The notes below the pieces were generated by a model that was given only the letters and a program-made list of their open reading frames with translations, made no database searches and was not told the origin of the DNA. DNA of 64,000 bases from Candidatus Heimdallarchaeota archaeon (GTDB lineage: Archaea; Asgardarchaeota; Heimdallarchaeia; Heimdallarchaeales; Heimdallarchaeaceae). The DNA is taken from assembly GCA_030603365.1 (NCBI GenBank), contig JAUVXV010000004.1, positions 32,001-96,000 on the forward strand. Reading direction: 5' to 3'. Position 1 is the first letter of the stretch; each line of letters opens with the position of its first letter. Positions 52,056-56,326 of this stretch are shown here, piece after piece. The position numbers and the translations under genes are program-made.

Positions 52056-52283
52056 TTATTTCGGAGGAGGACTAATCATAATTACATTGTCACCACGTAC
52101 AATGATATCTCCTAATTTTGTAGTTCCTTCTGAACCAATCTCTTCTGCGTTTTCAAGTGTTAGATTTAGATGAATATCATAATTTTTTAAGATGCCTCTC
52201 ATTCGACGATTACCACGTAATCTGATTAATACTCTTTTTTCTCTAGCTTGATTTAAGATATCCATCGGTTTGCTTGTTGTCAT
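52056..52283 (-). CDS. Sm-like (Lsm/SmAP) protein
   Basis: G.L..YD.HLNL.L..AEE, IVRGDNV. Confidence 0.95.
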   Translation of the reverse strand: MTTSKPMDILNQAREKRVLIRLRGNRRMRGILKNYDIHLNLTLENAEEIGSEGTTKLGDIIVRGDNVIMISPPPK

Positions 52284-52519
52284 AGTTATTACTCCAAAAC
52301 TATACGAACTCCAACTTTAAGATTTCATTATAAAAGTTTTTATCATGTAGTCATATTGAACCCATCAACTATCAATTTAGAGAAATAACTGAAAGTAAGT
52401 TATTACGAGGGTTTTAATAGCGAAATATAGGAAAAAAAAGAAGAAGAAAGAGTTAAGGTTTAAAATTATAAAACTTTCTGTTATGAGTTACTTTTTCCGA
52501 CAATTTCCGAGTAGAAGTT

Positions 52520-52768
52520 GTGAAGAGCGTTTCAGGACTCATCCTAGACCAGCGTAGTGTAGATGAAAAACAAAGTTCTTCATAGGTGTATAACTGCACA
52601 AAATGGAAAGATAAACAATTCAAGCTGTGACAGTACCGGTCTTCTGGAGTAGAATATACAAAACTGTATACCTAGCTCAAAGGAATCATTTCCCGTTACG
52701 AGAGGGAACTCATTACCTGACCTAGCAAAGCGAAGCAATTGATAGGTCCTCTACCTGTCCCATCGAAT
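52520..52768 (-). ncRNA. Putative TnpB omegaRNA scaffold / element right end
   Basis: Non-coding, GC-richer stretch directly 3' of tnpB with several stems (52719-52748, 52690-52708, 52655-52670); candidate TTCAC end at 52524-52520. Confidence 0.45.
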
Positions 52769-54370
52769 CTAGAGAAACGATGTATCCCCTACGGAATACT
52801 TAAGCCACTGGCTTAAGGGTTCAAAGCATTCATACCACTCTAGCTTATGGAAGTCTCCAGAAAGTGTATCACGGAGGTTGTATTGATAATTTTTAGTTGG
52901 TTCTAAAACATATTTGATCAACCTCTTAGCTATGTTTCTCGCCCCGTTCAAGTCAGCATTGAGTTCATACTTGCATTGGTGGCAAACAAATCGTCCTTGA
53001 CTTGAGCGGGTAGTCTTTGTAGAAAAACATCTAGAACATCGTTTCGAGGTATTTTTCTCATCAACAGCTACAACGCGATAAGACTCAAATCCGTGTTTTT
53101 GAAGTTTGTACATCAGTTTCGTTATAAAGAGGCGATAACACCACTTATGTAACTGACGACGTAAAGATTTGTTTCCACTTCCACTTTGGTGATTTTTCCG
53201 AATATGCTTAGGATAGCCAACAGATACAAACAGATTATAACGCTTCTTCAACTGGAGAATGAAATCAACTAATTGATTGACTGCATAGCCCAGTTCCTGT
53301 TCCGTAACAGAACGAAGTCTTTTCCGTAGTTGGGAAAGTTTGACGTTAAGCTGGTTGTGGGGTTGACCATTCTTCTTCCTTGTATCTAGTTCGCTCTGAA
53401 TAGATTGAATCCTTTTCTCTAGTCGATACATCTTAGCTTGTCTCTCCTTATTGACAATGAAACAAAGTTCATCCATAATTACTTTCCCAGTTGGGGTAAG
53501 TAACACAGCAACAGCTGTCTTCTTTATTCCCAAATCTACGCCTAACACTGCGGGAGGGTTAGTGGATTGGTAGCTGGGAACAGAAAATTGTTGGCTGAAA
53601 TGCGCCCACCATTGTTGCTCTTCGGATTTATAGACTAGTTCCAACTGCTTAGTTTTCGCTAGTTTCAGCTTCTTCTCGTGACAAGGGGAATAAGCTAAAG
53701 GTAGCCACATCTTAGGATGGATATGTCTATCAGCTCTTTTTGAATCAAGAGAGTCTCGCACTTCTAACCATAGTTTGGCTTCAGGATTGTCGGGTTTAGG
53801 ATGAATCCTTACCGTCCAACTACCTGGTGTCATTCTTGGATACAAAGGACGAGGGATTTTCTTCTTGAACTCTGGTCTATTCAGATTCGTCTTAGAACGC
53901 TCTTGTAGTTGTCTCCAACTTTCATAAGCCCAGATAGCTTTGTCTCTACATTCTTGGAATTCATTAACTGAACTGCGAGGAAAACGTTTCTTCAGATCGT
54001 GAGGAACAGAAGTTCGTAACTTGTTCTTCCCTTTTCTGACCGTCGTTAAAGTTAACTTATCCAAAACGGATTTGTTTACTGTTAAGTCCTTCTTGATTAG
54101 TTTTTGTAATTGGCCATCTATTAGGACTTGTTTTTCCTCGTTGTGGTAGATGATTCTCAAGTAGTCTCGAATGATTCTCGTATCTCTTTCGGTTATTCTT
54201 CGCAACCTTTCACACTCTCTAACAGACATTAGTTCCGTCTTGATCCTTAGAGGAACGGCCTCATAGAATGTAACTAATGATGCTTGAGAAGTGCTTTTGT
54301 CTTCTTCAAATTTGTCGTGTTTCTTGTTCTCATTTAGTTCTTCTTGTTTATTCATTTCTTCTTTTTTCAA
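52769..54370 (-). mobile_element. tnpB: TnpB-family RNA-guided endonuclease (533 aa, rearranged RuvC-II), no adjacent transposase
   Basis: RuvC-I LGVDLG, VSVGYP in place of the canonical Glu, VDEKNTSKRCSRC...CHQC zinc finger, RuvC-III NADLNGARNI; GGAGGT SD; GC-richer than flanks. Confidence 0.88.
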
Positions 54371-54671
54371 GTCTTTTACCTCCTGAAATTATAAGTGTTT
54401 GATAAACATTGAACCTTTTTTCGAATTGTCGAAAATCATTGGTTCCTCTTCTAGAATCGGTGTGAAACTAGTAGAGGAACCAACGACTGGTACCACGTGT
54501 AAAATTGCTTCAGGAATTCGAATAAGATTTCAGAAGAACTACTTAACCTCTTTCTATCCTCCTTTTTTTGGTGATAAGCGAGCGATTAACAGTCCACGGG
54601 GGGTGGAGACGTAGTTATTCTCGCTCATCTACGTACAAACAAAAGTTGACCTTATAAACCCCAAGGAAATT

Positions 54672-54920
54672 TCATGACCTGCCTTTTTCTGTCAGATAAT
54701 TTGTCAATTCTCTTTGTGTACAGAATAGCAATTGCTGGCTGTATGGGAGTTTTTTCTCTAAAGTAACTTTTTCCAGTAAACCTTCTAATGTTATTTGTGT
54801 TGTTCCAAGAATAGCTTGCTCTATTTCAAACTCTGAAAATTCCTTTAATACAATAGAACAAACAATTTGTGCACTGGATCTGGTGTCAAAAAATAATGCT
54901 GAAATGCTCTCATCAAATTG
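54672..54920 (-). pseudogene. Start-less open frame, probable gene remnant
   Basis: 82 sense codons (QFDESISALFF...LTEKGRS*) with protein-like composition, bounded by stops, no upstream start codon. Confidence 0.3.
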
Positions 54921-55044
54921 TTAAATAGTTAAGAAACACACGTAAGTAACAACTAACAGAATAAGGATTTAACTTTAAATATCAAAATGAGTATGCATAT
55001 TATAGATACAGTACAAATCAGAAATATAGGAGAAATTATTTAGG

Positions 55045-55743
55045 ATGACAGTAGTAAACAAACAGAAGGTTAAGACCATTTTATTGATAAGTACAGTTCT
55101 ACTGTTAATGGGGAATAAGCAAGAGGTTATAGCAGAAGAAGAATATCTGATTGTAAGAATAGTAGATGCTGAGTATCCTCCGTCAGTCTATGTATTTACT
55201 GGTTGGAATTATACAGGTTTTAGTTTACGTTTTTATATGGAAGTGGAGAATCCAACACAATCAGAAATAAACATAACCTACTGGTGTAGTCCCCTACCGT
55301 TTCCACATTTAAGAACAAATCTGGAGAATGAAAGTCTTGAGGCAACAATATCTACTCAATATGAATGGTCATACCCCCAAAATTATTCTATGCCACCTGG
55401 AATTGAACAGAGATCACATCCTGCAGCTATAATAATTTTCAATTATGAAGAAACTCAACTTCCCTTAGGTGAATATGAGATATGGTATGATTATACAGAT
55501 TGCAGTTATACATATGTTCCTGTTATAACACAAAGCATGTTCATTTATGTTACAGAAGATAGTATATCCTACTTCTTCGAATACAATAACGAAACGAAAG
55601 TTGTTTCTACGACACAATTTACAGATACAACAAATCAATTTACAGATACAGCAAATCTTGTTTTAATCTATTTTATAACACCATATATTGTAAATGCAAT
55701 ATTAAATAGAATGAGAATGAGAATGAGAAAAATAAATAAATAA
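55045..55743 (+). CDS. Secreted, C-terminally anchored hypothetical protein (paralog of 24011-24673)
   Basis: Signal peptide, shared motifs with 24011, Thr-rich repeat, TM, basic tail. Confidence 0.7.
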   Translation: MTVVNKQKVKTILLISTVLLLMGNKQEVIAEEEYLIVRIVDAEYPPSVYVFTGWNYTGFSLRFYMEVENPTQSEINITYWCSPLPFPHLRTNLENESLEATISTQYEWSYPQNYSMPPGIEQRSHPAAIIIFNYEETQLPLGEYEIWYDYTDCSYTYVPVITQSMFIYVTEDSISYFFEYNNETKVVSTTQFTDTTNQFTDTANLVLIYFITPYIVNAILNRMRMRMRKINK

Positions 55744-55820
55744 ATAATCTTTAGAATATCTGATTAACCATTATAGTAATCTTGATTGATTTGACAACTT
55801 GAACACTTATCAATATAACG

Positions 55821-56160
55821 TCAAAGACTAATAATTACATCTTTAGATTTTTTACCACTCATATATTCGATATCAATTCTTCCTACGGCAACTCTAGTAA
55901 CAGATTGCTCTGTTTATTGTTTTTCAGCTACTTCCTCTGGTTTCTCATCTAGTTTCTTAATCATAAGTTCCAAAGCTGTTTTTTTCTCTTCAAAATCTTC
56001 TAGAAAGCGCACTTTACCCTTGAATTGAGCGGTTGCATACAGATGATCACAAGCTCCTTGAATATACCCTTCATCAACTAAAGCCTGTCCACACACAATG
56101 TTATTTTCTTTTAAGATATCGACTTTTTTACCCTCGCTTGCACAATGGAAAAAATTATTG
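55821..56160 (-). pseudogene. Pyridoxamine-5'-phosphate-oxidase-like (NimA-type) flavin-binding protein remnant
   Basis: FHCASEGKKVDILKEN.IVC...Y.T..F.GKV.F.ED..EKK.AL...*...IDIEYMSGK; internal TAA at 55914-55916; 5' end missing. Confidence 0.75.
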
Positions 56161-56326
56161 TGATGGATTAATTACGAATTTACCGATTTCAAATGGGTTC
56201 CTTCATTTTAATTTTTCTAGCAAAACGATTGCTACTGCACAAGTATTTCTTTAGTTAGAAATCGTTACCTTTAAGTAGAGAACGGCTTGCTTCCTTCTTA
56301 AGTTATTATTATATGAGGCGTAACTA

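Follow-up and report, generated by a model that had tools for sequence, protein, structure and literature searches.

A TnpB with a relocated RuvC-II glutamate in an Asgard archaeon, probably part of a non-autonomous mobile element

In TnpB2 nucleases and in all Fanzors, the canonical RuvC-II glutamate is replaced and an alternative glutamate is found about 45 residues downstream (Jiang et al. 2023, PMC10530073). One TnpB2 protein, TvTnpB of Thermoplasma volcanium, is an active TAM-dependent nuclease (PMC10530073). Altae-Tran et al. (2023, PMC10691335) place RuvC-II rearrangements in eight large branches as well as two major clades, with several almost confined to archaea, and the TnpB2/RIIr type is described as common in archaea (PMC10530073; PMC10691335). 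Fanzors and pro-Fanzors are defined by a RuvC-I DPG motif together with the alternative glutamate, and pro-Fanzors have been found only in cyanobacterial IS607 elements (Yoon et al., PMC10711439).

Here we describe a tnpB gene in a 64,000-nt stretch of DNA (the window) from a Candidatus Heimdallarchaeota archaeon. An earlier note on this DNA had read the gene as a stand-alone TnpB with a Fanzor-type active site, probably active, and possibly domesticated or non-autonomous. Its assumption of an Asgard host agrees with the homologues and same-genus contigs that we found, which are labelled Heimdallarchaeota or Promethearchaeati. Like TnpB2/RIIr, the gene product has a glycine at the RuvC-II glutamate site and a glutamate just before the zinc finger, and the two have in common archaeal hosts and a (here predicted) 3' omega-RNA that ends at the right end of the element. 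Unlike TnpB2/RIIr, the clade studied here is seen in Asgard genomes only, has a larger protein (533 aa) and no Y1 or serine TnpA in cis, and adds a conserved, structured leader of 300 nt and, past the scaffold, a spacer with a polypyrimidine tract; its tnpB is also often linked to a gene for a HerA-like ATPase.

Catalytic layout and predicted fold

The tnpB ORF occupies positions 52769-54370 (-) and encodes 533 aa in uninterrupted codons, the length that had been claimed. It starts with TTG after an AGGAGGT Shine-Dalgarno sequence, and relatives begin at the equivalent position with TTG or ATG. The product matches Pfam PF07282 (2.3e-16; 60.1 bits versus a cut-off of 26.3) and comes slightly below the cut-off of NCBIfam guided_TnpB (97.9 bits versus 100). 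[quoted passage not shown] The alternative glutamate, E438 in VDEKNTS, lies 53 residues C-terminal to G385 and, with the spacing E438-KNTSKR-C445, six residues before the first CxxC of the zinc finger (C445/C448/C463/C466).

In the phmmer alignment to AsCas12f (8j3r/8j12), G385 falls on the canonical RuvC-II glutamate ('MEDL') and E438 on the proline of 'IDPQYTSQRCS' (a D-P-x-Y-T-S-Q motif). Across 67 aligned relatives with 25-73% identity, D279, G281, G385, E438, T441, S442, C445, C448, C463 and D473 do not vary. Because the catalytic and zinc-finger positions are invariant in this alignment, the Gly/alternative-Glu layout, which the earlier note had described correctly, is not due to chance. 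For tnpB, dN/dS versus five relatives is 0.21-0.31. Judged from its sequence, the gene encodes a predicted nuclease of the TnpB family in which the D-E(alt)-D set and the zinc finger are intact; the 3' RNA is conserved as well. The earlier suggestion of a probably active nuclease is upheld, and its element is probably non-autonomous.

An AlphaFold2 model was built on the 67-sequence alignment (pLDDT 88.8, pTM 0.82). In the model, G385 is located at the end of strand 379-386 and E438 right after strand 433-437, ahead of the zinc ribbon; this predicted topology is the one published for alternative-Glu enzymes, and homology, together with published work on Fanzor2 and TvTnpB, would place E438 in the catalytic pocket. 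The top structural matches obtained with Foldseek and VIA-align were AsCas12f and OsCas12f (Z 19-20), with ISDra2 TnpB at Z 17.8 and the mimivirus Fanzor2 (ApmFz2, 9b0l) at Z 16.6. Fanzor1 was not found among the best 50 structural matches, and by sequence the PDB matches were Cas12f only. The fold match thus adds to the two profile matches in favour of a TnpB nuclease. The window TnpB has the WED/REC/RuvC/zinc-finger build of Cas12f and ISDra2 TnpB, from which it differs by the relocated catalytic glutamate, the lack of a CRISPR array and an identity of just 16-20%.

Leader, 3' RNA and guide region

Upstream of the ORF, a 19-locus alignment delimits a conserved leader or left end of ~300 nt (54371-54676, -). 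It begins at CATGAAATTTCC, overlapping the stop codon of the ATPase gene described below, with the start consensus CAT(G/A)AAATTTCC at this overlap, and holds a TATA-like TTTATAAG, a ~19-bp hairpin at 54434-54489 and a second stem. In total, 38 pairs are predicted in the leader, 5 of them compensatory.

On the other side, an omega-RNA-like scaffold composed of long-range helices and hairpins (52483-52812, -) reaches from the last ~40 nt of the ORF to an invariant TAACTCAT (52490-52483). It extends ~290 nt beyond the ORF and can be aligned across 20 loci, for which RNAalifold gives 41 pairs with 97% of cells paired and compensatory changes at 11 pairs. These values were reached by 0 of 500 shuffles, and slid controls collapse; whole hairpins are cleanly lost from the scaffolds of some relatives. 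In all 20 loci the scaffold ends sharply at TAACTCAT, beyond which the sequences are unrelated between loci, and this edge is where the scaffold-guide boundary would be expected. Covariation thus predicts a structured 3' RNA that overlaps the end of the ORF, a feature expected of a TnpB. Rfam gave no family match at 52200-54900.

The variable spacer that follows the scaffold (52453-52482, -) starts with AACAGAAAGTTTTATAAT and is a candidate guide. The 18 nt past the scaffold agree with the unoccupied allele of genome G016 at all but one position, and in that allele the matching stretch directly follows a CAT. For an insertion of the sister clade (L052), which also has a 718-nt deletion beside it, the other species reads ...ACAACAT and then the guide match. 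A CAT is found 5' of the guide match at 4 of the 6 resolvable sites, L137 being a resolvable site without it, which hints at a TAM that contains CAT and at insertion 3' of CAT. For the guides of the genome's three scaffold ends, there was no convincing second match in the genome.

Directly after the spacer lies a polypyrimidine tract of 24 nt with a T8 run (52429-52452, -), which is likely the terminator of the 3' RNA. The tract is present in 20/20 close loci, on the same strand, with a length of 12-35 nt (core T7-T10) and after a variable spacer of 7-127 nt; in this genome, the same rule holds at 1.9% of random and 5% of AT-rich control positions. The sister clade has no such tract. Since the empty sites of the window and of L137 lack them, both spacer and tract are part of the insertion.

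At the return to host DNA in the window, in the promoter region of an Sm-like gene, the guide region is present a second time in imperfect form, as CATGATAAAAACTTTTATAAT (52327-52347, -). The scaffold-proximal copy is G016-like and the distal one G036-like. Similarly, an imperfect repeat of the spacer's first 18-45 nt is found 45-380 nt downstream, at the resumption of host DNA, in L137, L029 and L119 as in the window, and possibly also in L136 and L140, giving a spacer repeat of nearby host DNA in 4-6 of 19 loci. Candidate explanations for the duplicated guide are the recombinational integration of a donor carrying its flank, scars of self-cleavage repair, or guide-directed insertion. A simple model in which the guide equals the flank does not account for the spacer, the tract and the duplication of the guide. 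At L138, the final ~30 nt of the scaffold (with ...GAGAATAACTCAT at their end) appear once more, on their own, ~170 nt past the scaffold end, after the first spacer and polypyrimidine tract, an arrangement that looks like a mini-array of two units.

Mobility, ATPase linkage and the insertion site

TnpA, whether Y1 or serine, is absent from the window and from all ~20 close loci. A profile search found no Y1 TnpA in this genome (89% complete), and none was found in the complete Ca. H. aukensis genome; Ca. H. endolithica has just one, which is unlinked. The serine recombinases of the window's genome are all located outside the window. Solo TnpBs are common, and the lack of TnpA is therefore compatible with TnpB membership. 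The genome as a whole (G000) has 18 TnpB zinc-ribbon matches, at least 7 of which are ~425-aa copies and three of which are TnpBs of 644-678 aa that adjoin serine recombinases (IS607-like).

No tandem or CRISPR array was detected within 40000-64000, and identity as a Type V CRISPR effector (Cas12f) was rejected on the lack of an adjacent array there. The description of the gene as stand-alone holds with respect to TnpA and CRISPR arrays nearby but misses a 72-codon remnant of a HerA-like ATPase directly upstream (54675-54890, -). The aCas1-associated Asgard TnpBs (Cas1H-Asgard-1/2) of Altae-Tran et al. (PMC10691335) are alike in having Asgard hosts and a hypervariable stretch downstream of tnpB, but no Cas1 adjoins any examined locus of the family studied here. 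This genome has no Cas1 above the cut-off, the loci have no recurrent Cas1-like neighbour, and the downstream GTTCACTCA motif reported for those TnpBs is absent from 20/20 loci; on these grounds, identity as an aCas1-associated TnpB was rejected too.

Sequence searches recovered the family only from records labelled Heimdall-, Thor- and Promethearchaeia. It is present in 9 of 18 same-genus genomes, with 0-7 copies per genome, and was not found in the other sampled families of the order. Viral contigs gave no close relative, and the viral TnpBs found were mostly canonical, with proline at the alternative-Glu position. A count of genomic copies, suggested in the earlier note, yielded one further full copy in this genome (contig C3, 64% identical) and two fragments. 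A sister clade (~37% identity) consists of TnpB-only units of 1.86 kb, of which the two complete Ca. Heimdallarchaeum genomes hold at least 15 copies, 82-93% identical. Inverted repeats built on TTACGTAA bound these units, whose right end has the sequence ...GTAAATCAT; terminal inverted repeats, clear in the Heimdallarchaeum clade, were not convincingly found in the window's clade. The sister-clade copy L052 stands in place of 718 nt of a host gene, which the sister species has in full (G038:C1:3292900-3293900), and the CA microhomology at its left junction fits a deletion that took place beside the unit once it had inserted. The family moves although it has no recognisable transposase in cis.

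In close relatives (70% identical), a gene for an ATPase of ~890 aa is located ~300 nt upstream of tnpB on the same strand (L104/L105, L107-L109, L032, L137, L138 and L140). The ATPase carries HerA (DUF87) and TrwB-type P-loop signatures and shows weak matches to CedD and anti-phage HerA. The full gene is found upstream in 7 of ~20 distinct loci, with clear remnants in 3. The remnant in the window comprises the last 72 codons and is 76% identical to the full-length L104 gene; L031 and L144 have kept 65-92 ATPase codons, and other loci 0-60 nt. L104 and L107 are 90% identical over 4.9 kb and have unrelated flanks, from which it follows that the ATPase and TnpB genes travel together as one unit of 4.9 kb. 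Such a unit is the source of the window copy, which has lost all but 72 of the ATPase codons. In the literature searched, we found no description of the frequent HerA-like ATPase pairing or of the odd 3' end: the main text of Altae-Tran et al. (PMC10691335) reports no association of an ATPase, HerA or DUF87 with TnpB, and the aloposon papers (PMC8813620, PMC11529989) do not mention TnpB.

Several further ATPase genes and large ORFs were observed. A paralogue of 948 aa (41% identical) at G000:C8:14608-17334 (L116) lies directly upstream of rpl1-rpl10, and almost all genomes of the genus have its core, so that the mobile ATPase may have had a chromosomal gene as its source; tblastx of the window versus this C8 locus gave no match. 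A third paralogue (49% identical) is located at G000:C3:36702-42080 (L111/L115), 7 kb upstream of the tnpB copy on C3; its neighbours, which are DUF4365-like, HEPN (RiboL-PSP) and SAP-domain genes, give it a setting like that of a defence island. In Thorarchaeota relatives (35% identical), a divergent giant ORF of 1600-1880 aa is found ~270 nt upstream of tnpB (L064:90-5738 (-), L044, L048, L049, L054, L055 and L062). The giant ORFs have no Pfam or PADLOC match, and two giant-ORF/tnpB pairs in one genome suggest a larger mobile unit.

In at least 12 same-genus genomes the site is empty, with the Sm-like gene flank and the rpl11 flank only 19-80 nt apart. Because these flanks abut in the congeners, positions 52351-56248 form a lineage-specific inserted block of 3.9 kb between the Sm-like gene and rpl11. 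The block is a mosaic of the TnpB unit, a 232-aa gene, an inverted gene copy and a ~100-nt unit. The 232-aa gene (55045-55743, +) has no Pfam family and lies beside the ATPase remnant; a paralogue (65% identical) at G000:C2:46389-47551, near a serine recombinase gene, also adjoins an ATPase fragment. The inverted copy of ~370-375 bp (55783-56157) is 95% identical to its source, part of a gene 40 kb away at G000:C14:125227-125601 that is conserved in all same-genus genomes. The ~100-nt unit (52340-52445, -) is situated between the polypyrimidine tract and the promoter of the Sm-like gene. It is 75-77% identical to two stretches of contig C15 (C15:29882-29979 and C15:18263-18352), each of which immediately precedes another tnpB gene (436-454 aa), and related copies occur in genome G032. 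From four DNA runs, which gave short contigs of low depth, one read contig confirmed the assembly across 52340-52565 and none bridged an empty site.

Alternative readings and significance

We estimate a probability of about 0.78 that the gene is a non-autonomous, TnpA-less mobile TnpB of the OMEGA type, belonging to an Asgard-only clade (Heimdall- and Thor-labelled) with the alternative glutamate of TnpB2/RIIr. The failed search for a transposase, the 3' features that do not fit a simple flank-derived guide, and the L137 site without CAT weigh against this reading. For such an element, we infer that a promoter in the leader would drive tnpB, and that the 3' end of the ORF with the ~290 nt downstream would be transcribed as a structured omega-RNA up to TAACTCAT. 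The guide would be the ~18-20 nt beyond this point, with transcription ending at the T-rich tract 30 nt on. The RNP would recognise a short 5' motif, probably CAT, and the guide match, and would cut via D279/E438/D473. Its natural target would be the unoccupied allele of the element's own insertion site, so that, as with other TnpB elements, cutting would lead to recombinational repair that helps to keep or copy the element.

With its alternative glutamate placed, like that of Fanzors, six residues ahead of the zinc finger, and with its Asgard host, the protein could also be taken for an archaeal 'pro-Fanzor', that is, a close relative or ancestor of eukaryotic Fanzors; the earlier note spoke of a 'Fanzor-type' active site and of relevance to Fanzor origins. 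Fanzor2 (ApmFz2, 9b0l) and the cyanobacterial pro-Fanzors do have this spacing and the TnpB fold in common with the window TnpB, which differs from them in its archaeal host, the lack of an IS607 TnpA and its RuvC-I motif. Throughout the clade this motif is D279-L280-G281 (DLG), with L280 nearly invariant in the 67-sequence alignment, where the definition of Yoon et al. (PMC10711439) requires DPG. What the protein does have is the hallmark of alternative-Glu TnpBs, G385 in place of the glutamate and E438 six residues before the CxxC, and an equivalent layout occurs in many TnpB branches (PMC10691335). Structurally, Fanzor2 ranks below Cas12f and ISDra2 TnpB and is no closer to the window TnpB than canonical TnpB is, Fanzor1 is outside the top 50, and the PDB sequence matches are confined to Cas12f. 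We therefore regard a special kinship with Fanzors as very unlikely: by the published criteria, applied to these sequences, the clade would not count as a Fanzor relative. The statement that the Gly/alternative-Glu layout marks Fanzors and related TnpB clades is right for the published TnpB2/RIIr but incomplete for Fanzors, which need DPG too, and the shifted glutamate is the already described TnpB2/RIIr variant and no special clue to Fanzor origins.

A domesticated, vertically inherited host gene in which TnpB has a cellular or regulatory role would account for the lack of a transposase in cis, the long conserved leader and a size above that of typical TnpBs. We give it hardly any credence, since the Sm-like gene and rpl11 are adjacent without the block in at least 12 same-genus genomes, and since the family is patchy, multi-copy in relatives and found at differing sites with differing flanks; with the locus a lineage-specific insertion, long-term domestication at this site is ruled out. 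A decaying relic, with the ORF still open, the element immobile and both nuclease and RNA inactive, is unlikely as well, though less so. The truncated ATPase gene, the mosaic locus, the single other full copy (64% identity) besides two fragments and the failure to find a cognate transposase point that way; the 533 uninterrupted codons with all invariant residues kept, the dN/dS of 0.2-0.3 and the pairings retained in the leader and the 3' RNA point against it. The window copy, which lies within a rearranged mosaic and has just one other full copy beside it in the genome, may nonetheless no longer move. Slightly more doubtful than the relic is a new, undescribed Asgard mobile element made of the HerA/CedD-like ATPase-TnpB pair, with its guide carried internally between the scaffold and the polypyrimidine terminator; this spacer would direct insertion or homing beside matching host DNA, aided by the ATPase, which would process the cut DNA. 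Such an element could explain why spacer and tract are missing from the empty sites, the tract in 20/20 loci against 2-5% of control positions, the recurrence of the spacer at the resumption of host DNA (in L137, L029, the window and L119), and the mobility of the ATPase-TnpB pair as one unit. However, the repeat is seen in just 4-6 of 19 loci and at distances of 45-380 nt, the tract is missing from the sister clade, and the duplicated guide fits repair scars as well as recombination between donor and recipient alleles (one copy being G016-like and the other G036-like).

On the preferred reading, as a TnpA-less mobile OMEGA-type TnpB, what is new for the family is the mobile unit of a HerA-like ATPase and TnpB, the conserved structured leader, and the 3' end with its spacer and polypyrimidine tract. 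The family is Asgard-restricted and well delimited; as its scaffold is defined, its TAM likely short (CAT) and the limit between scaffold and guide clear, it would be easy to test as a compact nuclease. Its 3' end, comprising the spacer, the polypyrimidine tract and the occasional duplicated target, goes beyond current TnpB models. Together with the transposase-less mobility and the ATPase coupling, this 3' end could bear on how TnpBs move and acquire their guides.
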